From the IMG/VR virus record IMGVR_UViG_2609459801_000008: 14,589 bases of DNA; one strand, written 5' to 3'. This document shows positions 2 to 7,364 of this stretch, in pieces; position 1 is the stretch's first letter, and every line of letters starts with the position of its first letter. A program made the position numbers and the translations under genes. The DNA comes from a virus (taxonomy: Duplodnaviria > Heunggongvirae > Uroviricota > Caudoviricetes). Under the pieces are notes generated by a model, which was not told where the DNA came from, ran no database searches, and worked only from the letters and a program-made list of their open reading frames with translations.

Positions 2-316
2 GACAGGCTCCGGAAGACGGTTGTTGCGCACGTATTCGGTGAACGCACTATGGCGACGCTGGGGCGTCTTATGAGCCTGCTGTCACCCTTTGACGTGGTG
101 ATATGGATGACGGATGGCTGGCCGCTGTATGAATCCCGCCTGAAGGGAAAGCTGCACGTAATCAGCAAGCGATATACGCAGCGAATTGAGCGGCATAACC
201 TGAATCTGAGGCAGCACCTGGCACGGCTGGGACGGAAGTCGCTGTCGTTCTCAAAATCGGTGGAGCTGCATGACAAAGTCATCGGGCATTATCTGAACAT
301 AAAACACTATCAATAA
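2..316 (+). CDS. insB: IS1 transposase InsB, C-terminal portion (5' end outside window)
   Basis: The frame is open from the window edge. The track ORF 50..316 begins at an internal Met; translation from base 2 continues the InsB sequence. Stop TAA at 314-316. Confidence 0.9.
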
Positions 317-331
317 GTTGGAGTCATTACC
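309..331 (+). repeat. IS1 right terminal inverted repeat
   Basis: ATCAATAAGTTGGAGTCATTACC is the reverse complement of the IS1 end GGTAATGACTCCAACTTATTGAT. Junction with phage DNA is at 331/332. Confidence 0.85.
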
Positions 332-2225
332 GTTCACTAGCTCTCTGCTGCTCCCGGGTCTGATATTGTTTTGAAAAGGCATCTGCTCTCTGTCTGAGTT
401 CAATTCCTTCCTGTTGTCGCTTGTTGTAATCGTTTATTGATGAATTTAGTACGTCCTTAGCAATTTTTTCTGCTTGAAGTACGCCCAATTGCTGCTTTAA
501 TCGTGCCAGCCTTTTATTTTGAGCTCCGCCATCTCCAATGCCACCTAACCCGAAAACTCCGGGTCGGGTATTTTTTTCTATTTCATCAATTTGACGGAGA
601 ACATCTGAGATTTTTTGATCAAGGGAGGCCTCACGGCCAATATCCAGCATGGAATCCCATGCCCATTTTGCGGAGTCTGCGACAGCTTTCCATGCAGTCT
701 CAAGATAACCAAGATTTTCTTTAATCTGGTTGGTGCGCTGGATCATTGAGGATGAGTATTCTTCTGTCGCAATGCGGGCGGCCTCCTGCTGGTTCCCTTC
801 ATCCTGTAGCGCCTTAATCTGGTTATAAGTCGCAAGTGTCAGAAAATGGTACTGATCATTAAGTTTTGATATGGCACTGACAGGATCCTTTGCAATTTCA
901 TTGAAGTCATTAACCAGTTGTTCGGTTGATATTCCTGTTACTTCGCTCGTTTTTACTATCGCTGTCGTCACTTGCTCCAGCGAACTGCTCGCTACCTTTC
1001 CCGAACGCACAAGCTGATTTAATACTGCCGCCGCAGCACCAGTTGTCGAATCAGCCGCATTCCCGGCACGTTGAGCTATATCGCCCAATTGCCCGCTGGT
1101 TGTCCCCAACTGATTTCCGGTAAGAATAAGAGATTTATTAAATTCGTCCTGCTCCTGAGAGCCTTTATAGTAAGCCAGTCCTAAGACCCCAACGGCTGCT
1201 GCGGCCAGGGTAAAAGGATTAATTAATCCCAGCACATAAGAACCTACACCTTTGATCGCCGGGCCAATCCCACCGAACATATCTTTTAGCTGGCCGCCCT
1301 GCTGCATTAACACCATAAATGGCGACTGACCAGTGGACAACCCAACAACAATATCCGTCATTTGTGCAGGCAACATGCGCATAGCAAAAGCCGTTTGTTT
1401 TGCCGACATTCCGGTTTTGCTTAATTGTGATTGAGTAACCTCAAGCTCACTCCGCATAGCACGAAGTTTTCCAGAAAGCTCCTCATACATTTCAGGAGAA
1501 AGCATCCCCTTAGCTTTTGCTTCATTGAGCTGTTTCTGTTGTTCTACCAGACGATTAAAAGCAGTTCCGACAGGATCAAGTTGAGCAATCAGACGTTGCA
1601 AAGCAACAACCTGTTCATCATGCGCTTTTGCTGCTTCTCGCTCTGCCTGAGCCTCTCCGGTAAGCTCTCGCCGTGTTTCCTGTATTTTTCGGCTATAATT
1701 CTCAAACTGAGAACCATTTATTTTCCCGGATGCAAACGCAGCATTAAGTTCATCATGCTGTTGTTCAAGATTTCTTAGCGCCGCAGCCAGAGGGTCGATC
1801 TTGTCCAGCATTCTTTGAAAGGCCTGAGCCTGCGCTTCCTGCTGGGCGGCAGCAAGTTTTCCGGCCTTCTCGGCTTCTCTCTGCGCTTGCGCAACCCCGC
1901 TCAATTCCTCTGTGGTTTCATTAAGTTTACGGACAAGAAATTCATATTCTTCTTTATCAATAAGCCCTTTATCGAAAAATTTCTTTAATTCAGAATAGCG
2001 TCGACCGACAGTATCAATTGCGGCACCAACTGGATCAATAGCTGCTTTTAATTTTGCGAGCGCGTTCTTCTCATCTTCTGTTGCCTTAGTCACTTTCCCT
2101 GCGCTATTTGCAGCAGTTTCCCCAGCCTGCGTCATTTTGACTAATGAGGAGGTCAGATTGTCAGCATTATTTTTCGCTCCAGTGCTATCAATAATTATTG
2201 CGAGACGCGAGGTTTGCTCTGCCAT
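327..2225 (-). CDS. Phage tail tape measure protein, 3'-truncated by the IS1 insertion (probably non-functional)
   Basis: 632-aa ORF with ATG at 2225 and SD AGGAG 7 nt upstream. N-terminal half has three ~48-aa coiled-coil repeats ([20 protein letters not shown]… / [20 protein letters not shown]… / [20 protein letters not shown]…) and a Gly-rich hydrophobic segment ([36 protein letters not shown]), both typical of lambda-family tape measure proteins. It follows the chaperone pair. The frame runs to the IS1 boundary and stops inside IS1 (327-329). Confidence 0.85.
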
Positions 2226-2240
2226 TTATTAAAACTCCTG

Positions 2241-2270
2241 ACAACAAAAAACCCACCGCGAAGTGGGTTT
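2241..2270 (-). terminator. Candidate intrinsic terminator just upstream of the tape measure start
   Basis: Minus strand reads AAACCCAC-TTCGCG-GTGGGTTTTTTGTTGT: a stem with a 5-bp GC core, 6-nt loop and U-run. It lies between the chaperone stop (2391) and the tape measure RBS. Confidence 0.45.
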
Positions 2271-2390
2271 CAGGCGACATAATAGTAGATATAGCGATTA
2301 CGAGGCCACGCAATGCTTTTCTCCAGGAGCATCATCGATTTAATTAAAGACACCATCACATCTCTGTAACAGAGTGTACGTAATTAACAA

Positions 2391-3160
2391 CTACACACAC
2401 TGCTCCTGAAAATACTGGTCATCCAGTGCAAAGATCACTGCTTCAAATTCATCGCGCTCAATCAATACCGGATGAGTGGCTAAATATTCATTTATCTCTG
2501 TCAGAGATAAAGGCAAAGGCACCCCAGCCATTCCAGCATAACGTCGGGCACGGGATATTACCGAATAGGCGTACAACAACTCCTTAAGCACCGGGTCTAT
2601 TTCTGGTTCCGGTATCGGTGGCAACCTGAGTTTTTCTCGCTTCCATCTTGCCTTTTCCCCCCTTTCTCCCCCGAACTCCGATAACCACCGCTGGGCAGCT
2701 ATGGCTTTTTTATCGTATCCTGCTTCTGCTGCTCTTTACCCTGGGCGATGCTGGCTGCTTCTGCAAGGATCTGCCAGTACAACTCTGGATTCTGCTTAAG
2801 CAGCGCGATCCCTCGTTCTGCCGTATATTCCAGTGCAACCTCAACACCATTAACCAGTTCACCAACCCCTTTCCAGTCTTTCAGCAGATAACGAGCGGCA
2901 TTATCAATGAGTAAATCATCAACAGAATCCACCTCGGAAACCTTTGAAATATCAAACTCCTTCGTTCCGACGTGCAAACTGGCATCCATTTTCTCAATGT
3001 GGCGACGGATTAATGCATTACGGGAGCGATACTGATCGTTATCGCTGCTTGCCACCAACAGTTTTAACCCGTCTACAGGTTTTAAGTCCTTCATTGGCGT
3101 AAACCAGCGTTCTCCACCAATGATAATTTTCTGATTAAGAATAAACATCCATAACCTCAT
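2391..3160 (-). CDS. Tail assembly chaperone fusion (lambda GT-like) made by programmed -1 frameshift at A_AAA_AAG
   Basis: The -1 frame is open from the slippery site through the track's 77-aa ORF (2391..2624, which starts on TTG and is not an independent gene). Hand translation after the slip gives …KKAIAAQRWLSEFGGERGEKARWKREKLRLPPIPEPEIDPVLKELL… with no stop until 2391. Confidence 0.6.
2699..3160 (-). CDS. Tail assembly chaperone (lambda G-like), zero-frame product
   Basis: 153-aa ORF, ATG at 3160 with SD GGGGGA 8 nt upstream. Sits between major tail protein and tape measure genes. Ends …DTIKKP* with the slippery heptamer in its last codons. Confidence 0.7.
   Translation of the reverse strand: MRLWMFILNQKIIIGGERWFTPMKDLKPVDGLKLLVASSDNDQYRSRNALIRRHIEKMDASLHVGTKEFDISKVSEVDSVDDLLIDNAARYLLKDWKGVGELVNGVEVALEYTAERGIALLKQNPELYWQILAEAASIAQGKEQQKQDTIKKP
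2705..2711 (-). other. Programmed -1 ribosomal frameshift slippery heptamer A_AAA_AAG
   Basis: Minus strand reads GAT ACG ATA AAA AAG CCA TAG. A AAA AAG is the same heptamer used by E. coli dnaX, placed 2 codons before the G stop, matching the conserved G/GT arrangement of long-tailed phages. Confidence 0.6.
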
Positions 3161-3208
3161 TCAATGCGTCCCCCTGTAGGGCAGTACCACAGGAGGAATA
3201 ACGGAAAA

Positions 3209-4171
3209 TCAACTAATCGCCTCAGCACTGGCTTTTGCGATCACGGCAGCCGGGGAATTTTTTTTTCTGGTTATCGTAGGTGCTTCATCTGCTGCGGTAA
3301 TGCTCAATTGAACCTGGATAATGTCGCTATTACCCCCATCAGGCCATTCACCTGACACCTGAACCTTCGGGAAACTGAAAGTGTATGCCCCCTCTCCATT
3401 CGAAAGCGTGAAGCTGAACGGAACTGTTTCTCCAGTCAGTGTTTTACTCCAGATTTCCCACGCGGCTTTAGACCATGAAAGCGTCACCGTACCGGACGGT
3501 GTAAAAGTAGTCGGAATATTTGCTCCTGCATAAGGCGAGCCAGTCCCGATACAACGCTGTGTCTGGAGTTTGTTATCGAACTGAATATCAAAACTGTCGA
3601 TACAAAAACCGTTACCTCCGGCAACACCATTCAGGCTTACTGCTGAAACCTCCTTAAACGAATAACGTAGCTTTCCTGCACTATCCACAGGTTCGCCTTT
3701 GATAAAATTCGTATCATCGGCCTTTGATTCCCAGTCCAGTCCGGCAAAGGTTACGGTCGCTGTAATATCGCCGTCGTTAGGGATCTGCATTTTCCATGAG
3801 CCAACCTGCGCTCCTCTGACGACAGAGGCAATTCCGACATCGGACGCATAGGTCGCCAGAGAAAATGTTATTCGCTCATTCCCCATTGTCAGAGAATCGC
3901 CTGACCATTCCGCGCCGAAACAGGATGCAAGAAAATCATCATGTTGACCCCAGCGAAATTTGGTACCAACATCACCGCCGACATCCACAGTGCCAGGCGT
4001 CGCCCCCTGAGCCATCCGGGAGCCACCAATCTCATTATTTTCGCCTTTATTCTGGGTGGGTTTTACTCCCCAGCTTGTGCGTTTTAATAAACTCCAGTCA
4101 CCACTTGCTGGCGTAGTGCCTGCAACCGTCTCCCGGATAAATGCCGAGATAACCTTTGCACCTGAACTCAC
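3209..4171 (-). CDS. Major tail (tube) protein, assigned by position
   Basis: 320-aa ORF directly upstream of the G/GT pair and tape measure gene. GTG start at 4171 with a strong SD (AGGAGG, 5-nt spacer) and an in-frame stop 4 codons upstream. Gly/Ser/Thr-rich, beta-rich composition. No motif-level identification. Confidence 0.6.
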   Translation of the reverse strand: MSSGAKVISAFIRETVAGTTPASGDWSLLKRTSWGVKPTQNKGENNEIGGSRMAQGATPGTVDVGGDVGTKFRWGQHDDFLASCFGAEWSGDSLTMGNERITFSLATYASDVGIASVVRGAQVGSWKMQIPNDGDITATVTFAGLDWESKADDTNFIKGEPVDSAGKLRYSFKEVSAVSLNGVAGGNGFCIDSFDIQFDNKLQTQRCIGTGSPYAGANIPTTFTPSGTVTLSWSKAAWEIWSKTLTGETVPFSFTLSNGEGAYTFSFPKVQVSGEWPDGGNSDIIQVQLSITAADEAPTITRKKNSPAAVIAKASAEAIS

Positions 4172-4197
4172 AGGAGCCTCCTATGTCATTAATTGCG

Positions 4198-4590
4198 CTA
4201 GAGCGCGCGATATGGAATTTGAAGATTAAGCTGGAACCAGCCATTCTTTTCGCCAACGGATATTGAGGAAACAGCCTGGTAACTGAGACGATCGTCATCC
4301 TGAAACTCAAACAGTTCCCGCAATTTATCGGCTGTCTCAGTAATGAGTTTTGAACCAGAACCTGCGGGGACAAATAACTGAATAATGATTATCCCCGTGC
4401 GATAAACAATCGGCCCCGCGCCAATTTCATTAACTCCAGCCTGCCCGGGAATATTACTTAACCGCGCCCAGATTAACTTACCGGAAGGATCGAACGTTGG
4501 CGCGTTCGGATACAATACGTCTTTTCCATCAATAATCGTCTGTGCCGTCATTCTGGAAATAACCGTATTTCTGATTTCAGTAAACGTCAT
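4198..4590 (-). CDS. Tail terminator / tail completion-like protein (positional)
   Basis: 130-aa ORF. Its ATG overlaps the upstream stop (ATGA) and it lies immediately before the major tail gene. Confidence 0.45.
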   Translation of the reverse strand: MTFTEIRNTVISRMTAQTIIDGKDVLYPNAPTFDPSGKLIWARLSNIPGQAGVNEIGAGPIVYRTGIIIIQLFVPAGSGSKLITETADKLRELFEFQDDDRLSYQAVSSISVGEKNGWFQLNLQIPYRAL

Positions 4591-4967
4591 TTGTAAGCCT
4601 GTAAAACACCATGAAAAGCGTTGGCATACACGCCAGTTGGCGCTTGTTGTGAATGACCGTTTTCAAGAGCCTCTGCATAAGGAAGGTTATTCTGGATATA
4701 AATAACTCCGTAATTTGCAGCTTTCGAAATAACCCCGATCCCACGCTGAACAGCAATCGTACCGTTCGGATCCACGTTATCAGATATACCAAAATCGGGA
4801 TGCTGTAACGACACCAGGTTGTTATTTCTGAAACGTCCGGTATCAACCGGAGCAGCAATATCAATAGCAGTAAGAATCTGAATAGCGATGTAGCGAATCT
4901 TCAGCCCTACATCTTCCTCAATCATCCCGGCAAATATTGACGGTTCTATATCCCATGCCTTTGCCAT
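4587..4967 (-). CDS. HK97 gp10-like neck / tail-component protein
   Basis: 126 aa containing …PVDTGRFRNNNL… and …NNLPYAEALENG…, which resemble the conserved motifs of the HK97 gp10 family. Translationally coupled to its neighbours. Confidence 0.55.
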   Translation of the reverse strand: MAKAWDIEPSIFAGMIEEDVGLKIRYIAIQILTAIDIAAPVDTGRFRNNNLVSLQHPDFGISDNVDPNGTIAVQRGIGVISKAANYGVIYIQNNLPYAEALENGHSQQAPTGVYANAFHGVLQAYK

Positions 4968-5351
4968 TTACGCTCTCCTTAACTGGATAGAGTAAACTGA
5001 TGCGGAAGGATCTACACTTGCTGTAATTACCTCGTATCGTTGTAACTGCCTTGATACAGGATCATAAATCTCAATAATATGGTCGACAGCTGGTTTATCC
5101 GTAACCTCGCATACCAGAGCGGTTAATTTAAGGTCACCATGCAAAATATTAATCCCATCAATTCTGCCCAGCTTATAACGTGTCAACACGCCTCGCCCGG
5201 TATAGATTGCGGTGGATTCGCCGCCAGTTTCCGTCACAGGATCCCAGTGCCGGTGCGTAACGTAAGAACCAGAAAAATCACTCACGGCGTCCGCTAAATC
5301 CTCATCAAAAGCAGCGGCAACCTCTGACTGAATCTCTTCACGAAGCCCCAT
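4968..5351 (-). CDS. Head-tail adaptor / joining protein (positional)
   Basis: 127-aa ORF inside the tightly packed connector gene block, with TAATG overlap to the upstream gene. Confidence 0.4.
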   Translation of the reverse strand: MGLREEIQSEVAAAFDEDLADAVSDFSGSYVTHRHWDPVTETGGESTAIYTGRGVLTRYKLGRIDGINILHGDLKLTALVCEVTDKPAVDHIIEIYDPVSRQLQRYEVITASVDPSASVYSIQLRRA

Positions 5352-5746
5352 TATCCCCCCCTCACAACCCTGACTTGTGAGCGACTAAGTCCGTACGGTT
5401 TCAGCAGTGCTATCGCAAGCTGTAAATCGGGTTCAAGCAATGCAGTGCTGTTTGCTGGCAACTCAGAAAATGATTTCGATACACTGACCCCGTCAGCCGA
5501 CACGGCTTTACTGATAACAACGCCAGAATCATTTTTCTGCTGAAACAACTTACCGAATGAGGCAATTCTGGCTGCATATGCTCCCGCAAGTTTTACCTCT
5601 TCCGGAATACGGGATGGGTTAATTTTCAGGTTGAAGCCATTAAGCCAGGCATTAGCCATTAAAACAGCTTTATTTTTAGCGTTCTCACTCGTCCAGGCGT
5701 TCCCAAACGCATTATCAACGTCATCACAGGTCACGTAAGTGATCAT
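5351..5746 (-). CDS. gp6-like head-tail connector protein (tentative)
   Basis: 131-aa ORF, first gene of the connector block. N-terminal pattern (MITYVTCDDVDNAFG…KAVLMANAWL) resembles gp6-type connector proteins. Start overlaps the upstream gene by 23 nt. Confidence 0.4.
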   Translation of the reverse strand: MITYVTCDDVDNAFGNAWTSENAKNKAVLMANAWLNGFNLKINPSRIPEEVKLAGAYAARIASFGKLFQQKNDSGVVISKAVSADGVSVSKSFSELPANSTALLEPDLQLAIALLKPYGLSRSQVRVVRGG

Positions 5747-6443
5747 GTGTTCCGGAATCCAGATACAGCTCGGTCATTCCGCCGCTGTTTTTCTGCGTCT
5801 GTTTCTGCCCTAACTGGACAGCACCGATCGTCATAAACAATTCACCACAGCGACCGAGATTCGTGTACGTATTCACATCCTCGTTAATGCGCCCCATGAA
5901 TGAGAACGGTCGATCAACCGAACAGATAAAGCTGTTCATTGCCTTGCGTTTCACCCACGAAGCATGGCCGCCATTGTCACCAAGAAAATCCCCGCCCTGC
6001 GACATAGCGATGGAAAGAGCAGGTATTGATTCGTAGTACGCCAGCATTTCAGAAAGGATCGCATCCAGTTTCCTTATCGGAAAATAGGCCTGGTCATAGT
6101 TGCGATCCACCCGAAACTGGAACTCGTGATAATCATCATCGAGCTGAATGAAGTATTTACACCCGACCAGTTTTGCCAGGTCGAAACAGGCATTACGGGC
6201 GTAAAAAATTGAGCGGCGGTCACAGAAATTATCGGCTTCGTCAAAACGACTGGCGATATCGGCTTTGGAAAACACCAGCACCTGTTCACCAAATTCAGCC
6301 ATGTACTGATTCCGTGTCTTATCTTCATCATCAACAACGATAAAAATTTTCCCGGTATAGCCAGCACGACGCAACGTCCGGTAAGTCAGAACTTTGTCCG
6401 GTCGCCCGTGAGTCAGAATAAAGGCGCAAAAATCATCACGCAT
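5724..6443 (-). CDS. Hypothetical enzyme-like protein with paired acidic motifs (possible nucleotide-sugar or nucleotidyl transferase fold; function unknown)
   Basis: Track ORF is 5724..6464 (246 aa). I prefer the ATG at 6443 (239 aa, MRDDFCAFILTHGRPDK…) because it has a strong SD (GAGGAGGAGG) and overlaps the ParB-like stop as ATGCGTGA. Alternating hydrophobic strands plus IVVDDED and QLDDDY clusters suggest a Rossmann-like DXD enzyme. Inference only. Confidence 0.5.
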   Translation of the reverse strand: MRDDFCAFILTHGRPDKVLTYRTLRRAGYTGKIFIVVDDEDKTRNQYMAEFGEQVLVFSKADIASRFDEADNFCDRRSIFYARNACFDLAKLVGCKYFIQLDDDYHEFQFRVDRNYDQAYFPIRKLDAILSEMLAYYESIPALSIAMSQGGDFLGDNGGHASWVKRKAMNSFICSVDRPFSFMGRINEDVNTYTNLGRCGELFMTIGAVQLGQKQTQKNSGGMTELYLDSGTHDHLRDL

Positions 6444-7227
6444 ATTCCTCCTCCTCACCACCATGCATGATCTCCACCATGCGCTGCGTCATCCGGACAA
6501 ATCCATTTTCAATAGCCTGCTGATAATCAATGATCACCAGCGCCGACTCCTCGAAAAAACACTGAATTTCAGAGGGGGCGTGAGCGTAATAGTCCGCAAT
6601 TCTGCTGAAATTAAACACCGTGTGACGTTCTGCCGCACACAGGAGGAATTTCTCAATATCAGGCTCAAGGGACGCCGAACGTATCCGGCTGATCAGCTCC
6701 TGAGTTTTCGTATCGTCGTACAGTTCACTGATATCCGGTTTACCGCCCGACGGCTCATAAACAGGCGTATCAATTTTCGTCGTATACGGCTCCTCCTCAT
6801 TTCCTGTACCGGGCAAAACATCCGTCAACAGTTCATCAATTTCTGTCGGGATGAAGCCTGTCAGGGAGACATCAAAATCAGCATTGATTAGGTCCGACAG
6901 GTCCATCCGCAACAGATCTTCATCCCAGCCAGCATTCATCGGCAGGCGATTATCTGCCAGGCGGTACGCCTTTTTCTGCTCATCCGTCAGGCCAGACAGA
7001 ACAATGACCGGAACAGAATCCATTTTGAGCATTTCAGCCGCCATAACACGACCGTGACCCGCAATAATTTCGCCCTTTTCGTCAATCAGCACCGGATTAG
7101 TCCAGCCGAATTGCTTAATACTTTCTACCAGTTGTGCCACCTGCTCAGGGCTGTGCGTCCTGGCGTTGTGCGCATACGGTGACAATTCTTGTAATGGGCG
7201 ATAGACTATCTTTAATTTCTCGCTCAT
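6436..7227 (-). CDS. ynaK: ParB-like nuclease (ParB/Srx N-terminal domain) protein, Rac ynaK-like by synteny
   Basis: 263 aa. N-terminal region has ParB-N features (…VLIDEKGEIIAGHGRVMAA…, a GxxR box), and the C-terminus is an acidic tail (GGEEEEYA). It lies immediately downstream of trkG, as ynaK does in the Rac prophage. ATG at 7227. Confidence 0.7.
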   Translation of the reverse strand: MSEKLKIVYRPLQELSPYAHNARTHSPEQVAQLVESIKQFGWTNPVLIDEKGEIIAGHGRVMAAEMLKMDSVPVIVLSGLTDEQKKAYRLADNRLPMNAGWDEDLLRMDLSDLINADFDVSLTGFIPTEIDELLTDVLPGTGNEEEPYTTKIDTPVYEPSGGKPDISELYDDTKTQELISRIRSASLEPDIEKFLLCAAERHTVFNFSRIADYYAHAPSEIQCFFEESALVIIDYQQAIENGFVRMTQRMVEIMHGGEEEEYA

Positions 7228-7244
7228 ACAGCCTTGCTTTATGA

Positions 7245-7278
7245 ATAAAACGCACCCCAGCAGCCAGTGCTACTGGGG
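7245..7278 (-). terminator. Candidate intrinsic terminator downstream of trkG
   Basis: Inverted repeat CCCCAGCAG-ccagtg-CTACTGGGG (8 of 9 pairs). On the minus strand it is followed by TGCGTTTTATTCAT. Sits between the trkG stop (7365) and the ParB-like start. Confidence 0.45.
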
Positions 7279-7364
7279 ACGGAGGGGTTGCTGGTAAAGT
7301 TAGGTATTGGATCAATGAGTGAGTCAACATAATATTAAACTCACAATTATAAATCAGCCATATA

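Follow-up and report, generated by a model that had tools for sequence, protein, structure and literature searches.

A ParB-like protein and a TAGT-family glycosyltransferase encoded as a conserved gene pair ahead of the terminase genes of tailed viruses, with a truncated copy in a Rac-type Escherichia prophage

The gene pair in the window

The window, ie the whole stretch of 14,589 nucleotides analysed here (IMG/VR virus record IMGVR_UViG_2609459801_000008), is the late region of a lambdoid, Rac-type Escherichia prophage, and the genes of interest, ynaK and a gene of the TAGT glycosyltransferase family, all lie on its minus strand. The initial annotation had described two overlapping open reading frames (ORFs) at 5724-7227, and both are present on the minus strand, at 6436-7227 (263 amino acids, aa) and at 5724-6464 (246 aa when read from the first ATG). 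The real start of the second ORF is the ATG at 6441-6443, which gives a protein of 239 aa. This ATG sits within ATGCGTGA, overlapping the stop codon of ynaK, and RefSeq annotates the same start in intact copies. The presence of GAGGAGGAGG ahead of the TAGT start, within the end of ynaK, indicates translational coupling. The two genes overlap by 4-29 bases in Klebsiella, Yersinia, metagenomic, Lactobacillus, Nocardia and haloarchaeal virus copies, and since the overlap is found in such distant copies, translational coupling is a conserved feature. Both gene identities, like the deletion described below, were observed directly and are practically certain.

The downstream protein, which had earlier been assigned to no known family, matched the Pfam family TAGT (PF20691) at 121.3 bits against a cut-off of 27.5 (E = 7e-35), over profile positions 4-205 of 205. 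It also matched phrog_842 at 3.7e-87, over profile positions 1-217 of 270 only. TAGT stands for TET-associated glycosyltransferase, and the family includes the phage 5-hydroxymethylcytosine (5hmC) glycosyltransferases, the trypanosome base-J glucosyltransferase JGT, and GREB1; intact copies carry the RefSeq name 'GREB1-related protein'. NCBIfam holds no model for TAGT, and a sequence search of the Protein Data Bank with the TAGT profile gave nothing meaningful. The AlphaFold2 (AF2) model of an intact homologue had a confident GT-A core, with a predicted local distance difference test score (pLDDT) above 85. When compared with solved structures using Foldseek, it matched GT-A enzymes, among them the protein-modifying GalNAc-T2, glycogenin, collagen galactosyltransferase and the S-glycosyltransferases SunS and ThuS. 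In a viral structure library it was TAGT proteins that matched best (up to 1e-26), with a further match to the T-even beta-glucosyl-HMC-alpha-glucosyltransferase at 3e-6. The GT-A fold, the DxD motif and the Pfam match together bear out the earlier suggestion that this is an enzyme of the nucleotide-sugar transferase type.

That suggestion had been drawn in part from two acidic clusters, VVDDED and LDDDY. D38 and D41 of the first and D102-D104 of the second are invariant in family alignments, as are R14 and E188-D189, and the clusters are, as judged from these alignments, conserved nucleotide-sugar and metal-binding motifs. Both the base-J glucosyltransferase and the phage GT-A enzymes acting on DNA are reported to carry an R…DDD…ED motif (bioRxiv 10.1101/2023.12.21.572611). 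R14, D102-D104 and E188-D189 reproduce it as R…DDD…ED(Y/F), and all are kept in the window copy. The intact TAGT protein is 310 aa long, with an extra invariant basic C-terminal block which lies outside the Pfam model. This block has the pattern G-T-Y-x-K-S-F-Y…P-x-C…R-x-H-H and is kept from E. coli to a haloarchaeal virus; ten of its residues (Y233, K235, S236, F237, Y238, P244, C246, R258, H260 and H261) are invariant among 10 diverse members. The median isoelectric point (pI) is 8.85 for the TAGT proteins and 9.6 for the C-terminal block, compared to 4.5 for the ParB partners.

The upstream protein, YnaK, had been called ParB-like, and this was confirmed by a match to Pfam ParB_N (PF02195) just over threshold (28.9 bits, cut-off 26.3, E = 1.2e-6) and by a match to phrog_620 at 2.7e-89. 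RefSeq uses the names ynaK and ParB/Srx family N-terminal domain-containing protein. The N-terminal 140 or so residues are much closer to the ParB domains joined to DNA methyltransferases: they matched phrog_498 (ParB-methyltransferase) at 9e-50, residues 10-144 matched the PADLOC model MTase_II at 5e-38, and identity to the ParB domain in ParB-N6/N4 methylase fusions is 45-63%. A box II-like motif, G57-H-G-R60, and D92-N93, which includes the N of box III, are conserved in 65 partners from many phyla. In the profile alignment G57-H-G-R60 lies opposite the GERR of Noc, with GERRxR replaced by GHGRxM, ie the motif is conserved in part. Foldseek matched this domain to CTP/CDP-bound ParB, Noc and KorB at about 1e-6, and also to a serine kinase and sulfiredoxin. 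From the model, the N-terminal domain is probably a nucleotide-binding domain of the ParB type.

Beyond the N-terminal domain, the AF2 pLDDT falls below 50 over residues 136-167. The linker motif (Table 1) is conserved across phyla and is kept in the TAGT::ParB fusion P0355. The C-terminal domain had no Pfam family match, and its conservation across phyla exceeds that of the N-terminal ParB domain. Used as a lone query it retrieved 1,115 cluster representatives (50% identity clusters), the matches being nearly always C-terminal in ParB_N proteins of 250-300 aa. That this domain might be a hidden dioxygenase was considered and rejected, as it has only about 90 residues, is helical and has no family match. 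A partition ParB of the ParABS type was also rejected. YnaK has no recognisable helix-turn-helix (HTH), its TIGR00180 score of 38.6 bits is below the cut-off of 58.45, and no ParA-like gene was present in the neighbourhoods inspected, in which parS sites were not searched.

YnaK-type ParB domains were also seen in other architectures. P0427 (914 aa) joins an Asp/Arg-hydroxylase-like dioxygenase domain, a ParB_N domain of this type and an N6/N4 methylase, and P0402 (519 aa) joins an FkbM-type methyltransferase to such a ParB_N domain. In P0265 (433 aa) a tandemly duplicated ParB domain is followed by a YnaK-type C-terminal domain.

The TAGT gene of the window is truncated: it encodes 232 native residues followed by a foreign tail. 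With the intact Rac-type prophage L001 (NZ_CP042896) as the reference, window 332-5751 aligned with L001 948-6366, and window 5749-10160 with L001 14001-18412. The deleted DNA holds TAGT residues 233-310, a 69-aa ORF, both terminase genes (small and large), those for the portal, minor head, scaffold-like and major capsid proteins, and a 58-aa ORF. TAGT codon 232 is joined to sequence just upstream of the head-tail adaptor (Ad1) gene, which now lies 5 nt downstream of the junction and is overlapped by the foreign tail of the truncated ORF. The exact junction was not found among the complete E. coli genomes of the collection. The truncated ORF keeps the whole Pfam-defined core and loses all 10 invariant residues of the C-terminal block; the enzyme would be inactive and the window copy is very probably a non-functional remnant. 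ynaK itself is intact; accessions for an intact ynaK product and for a full-length enzyme are WP_001291094.1 and WP_088845980.1, respectively. It had been noted that the pair lies where packaging genes would be expected. The position holds, but the pair is no substitute for the packaging block, because intact relatives have the pair directly upstream of that block, which was lost here by the 7,634-bp deletion. That the second protein might be a packaging or structural component was considered and rejected: for neither protein did Pfam or PHROG give a terminase, portal or capsid match, and the genes of that kind are the ones deleted.

Table 1. Position, strand and description of the features of the window (coordinates of the whole stretch)
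Feature	Position	Strand	Description
IS1 transposase fragment	50-316		abuts tape-measure gene
Tape-measure gene	327-2225		632 aa in window, 1,077 aa in intact relative
Head-tail adaptor (Ad1) gene	5351-5746	-	phrog_493, 7e-49
Truncated TAGT gene	5724-6443	-	239 aa: 232 native residues, then foreign HDHLRDL and stop
Deletion junction	5749-5751	.	3-bp GTT microhomology; 7,634 bp absent relative to L001
Palindrome TTCCGGAA	5750-5757	.	TAGT codons 229-232, centre of hot spot (L001 about 13990-14008)
ynaK	6436-7227	-	intact, 263 aa, ParB/Srx-type; conserved partner of the glycosyltransferase
Shine-Dalgarno-like GAGGAGGAGG	6447-6456	-	ahead of TAGT ATG, inside end of ynaK
YnaK C-terminal domain	6463-6726	-	residues 168-255; FL..AA.RH.vF....IA.yY....Q..E.sALVIID...AI.nG
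YnaK acidic linker	6703-6792	-	residues 146-175, predicted disordered; motif Y148-T-x-K-I-x-x-P155-x-Y157-E-P
YnaK predicted ParB nucleotide-binding N-terminal domain and helix pair	6823-7227	-	residues 1-135; confident AF2 model
Terminator-like hairpin	7255-7278	-	between low-GC trkG and ynaK; 10-bp stem, T-rich tail (scan)
trkG moron	7365-8840		inserted between Rz and ynaK; own terminator-like hairpin
Cargo block	10321-13078		between antiterminator Q and holin, the slot of toxin genes in Stx phages
AraC-family regulator	10321-10908	-	cargo block
2-thiouracil desulfurase/DUF1722 protein	11402-12361	-	cargo block
Blc-type lipocalin	12554-13078	+	cargo block, opposite strand

A two-gene module of tailed viruses

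The neighbourhood scans of IMG/VR were dominated by near-identical E. coli prophages, and a collection with one genome per species was used to follow the diversity of the pair. It gave 78 loci, 76 with a complete TAGT ORF, from Proteobacteria, Bacteroidota, Firmicutes, Planctomycetota, Verrucomicrobiota, Saccharibacteria, Acidobacteriota, a SAR11 relative and an archaeon. A YnaK-type ParB gene lay directly upstream on the same strand, adjacent or overlapping, in 69 of the 76. A second TAGT paralogue stood between the two genes in four more, and a gene for an S-adenosylmethionine (SAM)-dependent methyltransferase in one. The remaining two loci were an ORF-calling overlap and a truncated copy. 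The initial annotation had made its case depend on homologues co-occurring with ParB-like genes, and this is near-universal: at 74 of 76 loci a ParB gene precedes TAGT on the same strand at a distance of at most about 1 kb, and in some cases the two are fused. All-versus-all clustering of the neighbourhood proteins found the ParB-like protein in 69 loci, TAGT in 67, and the next cluster in 17. There is no third universal component of the module, because only the ParB-like and TAGT clusters are common to most loci.

In at least 41 of 65 loci, the product of the first large ORF downstream of the pair is a large terminase subunit, of the Terminase_6, Terminase_3, GpA or TerL_ATPase family. The start of the large terminase gene lies no more than a few bases from the TAGT stop in several loci. 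A separate small terminase gene is present in most loci, among them the intact Rac type, where the pair directly precedes the genes for the small and the large subunit. Lactobacillus phage c5 has the pair as ORF1 and ORF2, directly after cos; in Nocardia phage NTR1 it is followed immediately by the large terminase gene, and in the haloarchaeal virus HHTV-2 it consists of genes 21 and 22. Within E. coli the module was found in about a sixth of complete genomes. The pair is a strongly conserved two-gene module of the late operon of tailed viruses, both bacterial and archaeal. An exception is provided by Vibrio phages of about 191 kb, whose TAGT gene belongs to a replication module and has no ParB gene beside it.

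The two proteins also occur as one. A single chain of 534 aa contains a TAGT domain, a ParB domain, the linker motif and the YnaK C-terminal domain, and a search with it showed that at least five protein clusters hold TAGT::ParB fusions, the most distant at 35% identity. At both fusion loci inspected a second TAGT gene lies just downstream and overlaps the fusion gene. It is followed by the large terminase at one locus; the other is flanked by sugar-nucleotide enzymes (an epimerase/dehydratase and an NTP_transferase nucleotidyltransferase). Elsewhere, a UDP-galactopyranose mutase gene follows TAGT in 2 loci and a radical SAM gene in 8, with no specific subfamily assignable to the latter.

Several variants were observed alongside the common arrangement. 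In a Clostridia-type variant two tandem TAGT paralogues follow ParB (L211, L222, L224 and L231), with about 850 bp between ParB and TAGT. The radical SAM gene directly downstream of TAGT is also of this variant (L212:10860-11819 and seven other loci), and in this lineage its product could be the source of the acceptor or could modify it. On a Verrucomicrobia contig the gene between the ParB-like gene and TAGT (L215:5883-6719) encodes a class I SAM-dependent methyltransferase. The enzyme of Vibrio phage pv27 (L011, 8887-9888) is a TAGT of the same subfamily, with 44% identity and the C-terminal block present. The neighbours of the Vibrio phage gene encode a primase, helicases and a single-stranded DNA-binding protein, and a ParB partner was sought only adjacent to TAGT.

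Prophage setting and the truncation hot spot

The late region of the window runs from antiterminator Q and RusA through the cargo block to holin, lysozyme and Rz, followed by the trkG moron and the ynaK-TAGT pair. The pair is followed by the head-tail adaptor, head closure, neck, tail terminator, tail tube and tail chaperone genes, and finally by a tape-measure gene shortened by an IS1 fragment. The GC content of trkG is 33-40%, compared to 48-51% in the flanking DNA. The corresponding slot of a Yersinia prophage, upstream of its ParB gene, is occupied by genes for the A and B subunits of an LT-II-type enterotoxin (L005 2180-3332). The truncation of the tape-measure gene at IS1 is a second decay event of the same prophage, which is defective because of this and the 7.6-kb deletion.

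The point at which the TAGT gene is broken recurs in other prophages. Among the close homologues from E. coli there were at least 13 different downstream fusion partners, with divergence from the intact protein at residues 230-235. In the E. coli loci of IMG/VR, 4 of 8 internal truncations fell at codons 232-235, each joined to different DNA. Truncations cluster a second time about 300 bp further downstream, close to the 69-aa ORF and to where the small terminase gene begins. The TAGT gene was truncated in 85 of the 954 complete genomes that have this part of it, and 3 of 6 sampled truncated genome records end within a few bases of the same point. Judged by this clustering, the endpoint of the deletion in the window is not random. 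A site-specific break, such as a terminase cut at pac or cos, or the boundary of a mosaic module may account for the hot spot. It may mark a site-specific DNA break in Rac-type prophages, possibly a packaging initiation site.

Possible function and relation to known systems

Both protein families were already catalogued, and the window adds no new family. The near-obligatory pairing of ParB and TAGT ahead of the terminase, without a hydroxylase, is not described in the searchable literature; searches on ynaK, on HHTV-2 and on ParB with DNA glycosylation enzymes of the glycosyltransferase type turned up no work on the two together. It is the module, more than the truncated remnant in the window, that is of interest.

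DNA modification rather than packaging, raised as a possibility in the initial annotation, is the best-supported reading. We regard it as about an even call that the intact modules glycosylate DNA, assisted by ParB and expressed late. The intact pair would be expressed together with the terminase genes. The acidic ParB-like partner would load or recruit the basic glycosyltransferase on phage double-stranded DNA late in infection, or activate it there. Drawing on a nucleotide-sugar donor, the enzyme would then glycosylate the DNA shortly ahead of its packaging, and the likely benefit would be protection of the DNA from host nucleases. In favour of this proposal are the family, fold and catalytic motif of the enzyme, the pairing and fusion of the two genes near the terminase, the sugar-nucleotide genes beside some modules, the likeness of YnaK to ParB proteins of DNA-modifying systems, and the contrast in charge between the two proteins. 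PMC8256090 credits Aravind and co-workers with the suggestion that modification enzymes are guided to DNA by ParB proteins at the time of packaging. One subclass of phage thymine dioxygenases requires a ParB homologue for activity on double-stranded DNA (O'Toole et al., PNAS 2026, PMC13229309).

Several observations weigh against this proposal. The known DNA enzymes of the TAGT type need a hydroxymethyl group on the base. No 5mYOX/TET or thymidylate-synthase-like gene was found as a conserved neighbour within 10 kb on either side at the 78 loci. Likewise, no enzyme making 5hmC or 5-hydroxymethyluracil is annotated anywhere between intR and pinR in a complete Rac-type prophage, and TET_JBP had no match among the unassigned candidate proteins of the 31.8-kb phage c5; divergent unannotated enzymes could escape such searches. 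YnaK is very acidic, and family searches found no HTH or other DNA-binding domain in it. The AF2 models of the TAGT C-terminal block and of the helical YnaK C-terminal domain are of low confidence, and no fold could be assigned to either. GREB1, itself a member of the TAGT family, O-GlcNAcylates a protein (PMC7968844). Finally, the searchable literature contains no report of a modified base in the Rac-type, Lactobacillus c5-type or HHTV-2 viruses.

A more specific form of DNA glycosylation would have ParB-TAGT put a sugar on DNA without a hydroxymethyl-pyrimidine precursor, on a canonical base or another DNA nucleophile, with ParB as an obligatory loader or activator at packaging. We consider this unlikely. 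If true, it would mean a widespread and unrecognised DNA modification in temperate and lytic tailed viruses of bacteria and archaea. More generally, if the DNA is modified, ParB-activated DNA-modifying enzymes would extend from dioxygenases to glycosyltransferases, and a new acceptor chemistry would be indicated. The module can be tested directly in E. coli with the genes of common Rac-type prophages.

The acceptor could instead be a protein, namely the ParB-like partner itself (on a Tyr or Thr of the linker, by self-glucosylation in the style of glycogenin), the terminase, or virion proteins of the late operon. The GREB1 precedent, the protein-modifying GT-A enzymes among the solved-structure matches and the lack of an encoded source of hydroxymethyl bases are all consistent with this, as is the place of the module at the head of the structural operon; the linker motif YTxKIxxPxYEP offers two tyrosines and is kept even in fusions. 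However, the closest viral relatives of known function, by structure and by sequence, act on DNA, and the N-terminal domain of YnaK is most like those fused to DNA methyltransferases. The Vibrio phage enzyme, moreover, is encoded in a replication module and not among structural genes. A specific structural-protein substrate is also unlikely because at least four unrelated terminase and capsid families travel with the module. Protein glycosylation is for us a distinctly unlikely explanation.

Counter-defence by glycosylating or sequestering a host target other than DNA (a defence signalling nucleotide, a protein or an envelope precursor), or action of the acidic ParB-like protein as a DNA mimic or decoy, we hold to be very unlikely. 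The conserved position and translational coupling across phyla are unlike those of typical morons, even though the lambdoid module lies in the moron zone between lysis and terminase genes, beside trkG or, in Yersinia, the LT-II enterotoxin genes. The partner's pI of about 4.5 would suit a decoy, and the ParB/Srx fold serves kinase and other non-DNA functions (PMC12704722), in keeping with the serine kinase and sulfiredoxin found by Foldseek. The likeness to DNA-modifying systems is nevertheless much stronger, and no defence or anti-defence model was matched except for the methyltransferase-type ParB domain.

The least probable explanation, and one to which we attach hardly any weight, is that the ParB-like protein aids the terminase (by recognising pac or cos, by binding DNA in the manner of a small terminase subunit, or by handling concatemers) with the glycosyltransferase secondary or regulatory: it would fit the position nearly always directly upstream of the terminase genes, the loci with no room for a small-subunit gene between the TAGT stop and the large terminase, the place of the c5 pair after cos and the recurrent DNA-break and deletion hot spot within the TAGT gene of E. 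coli prophages, but YnaK is strongly acidic without an HTH or other DNA-binding domain, most loci, the intact Rac type included, own a small terminase gene, and the pairing or fusion with a catalytically intact glycosyltransferase and the sugar-nucleotide neighbours would be left unexplained.

DNA glycosylation by the intact module can also be set beside the systems it most resembles. Partition ParB of the ParABS type, Noc and KorB share with YnaK the N-terminal fold and part of the nucleotide-binding motif. YnaK, in contrast, is acidic, has neither an HTH nor a ParA partner, and is found in the context of a phage late operon.

The enzyme clearly resembles other members of the TAGT family, with its Pfam match of 121 bits, its GT-A fold, its R…DDD…ED motif and viral TAGT structures as its closest matches. 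Phage GT-A enzymes of this family glycosylate 5hmC made by pairs of a methyltransferase and a TET enzyme; about 65% of the viral contigs bearing such glycosyltransferases were without these partners, and were set aside as less obviously DNA-modifying (bioRxiv 10.1101/2023.12.21.572611). The present module differs in having no TET/5mYOX, no pair of C5-methyltransferase and dioxygenase, and no hydroxymethylase. Its subfamily also has the extra invariant basic C-terminal block, which the truncated window copy has lost. In published clusters glycosyltransferases are associated with the ParB-independent subclass of dioxygenases (PMC13229309), whereas the TAGT of the module is paired with ParB.

In the ParB of the ParB-dependent thymine dioxygenases, a nucleotide-binding domain and a structured helix pair are joined through about 50 unstructured residues to a C-terminal domain, and a DNA-binding domain is lacking (PMC13229309). 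The AF2 model of YnaK has the same layout, with about 30 disordered residues in the linker, and it too has no DNA-binding domain. As in the 5mYOX176/ParB176 system, the ParB-like protein is encoded beside a candidate DNA-modifying enzyme and near the terminase genes. The enzyme of the module is, however, a glycosyltransferase and not a dioxygenase, and the likeness is one of layout.

A survey of the ParB-CTPase fold described frequent prophage fusions to methyltransferases and did not mention glycosyltransferases (PMC12704722). The fusions to N6/N4 methyltransferases (phrog_498, MTase_II) resemble the module in the N-terminal domain, which YnaK matches, and in being late or terminase-proximal prophage genes. 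They differ in that the catalytic methyltransferase is fused in cis and the YnaK C-terminal domain is absent; the glycosyltransferase of the module is mostly separate and translationally coupled, and is fused only in a minority. On this comparison, the module is best read as an analogue of the ParB-dependent phage thymine dioxygenases and of the ParB-methyltransferase fusions.

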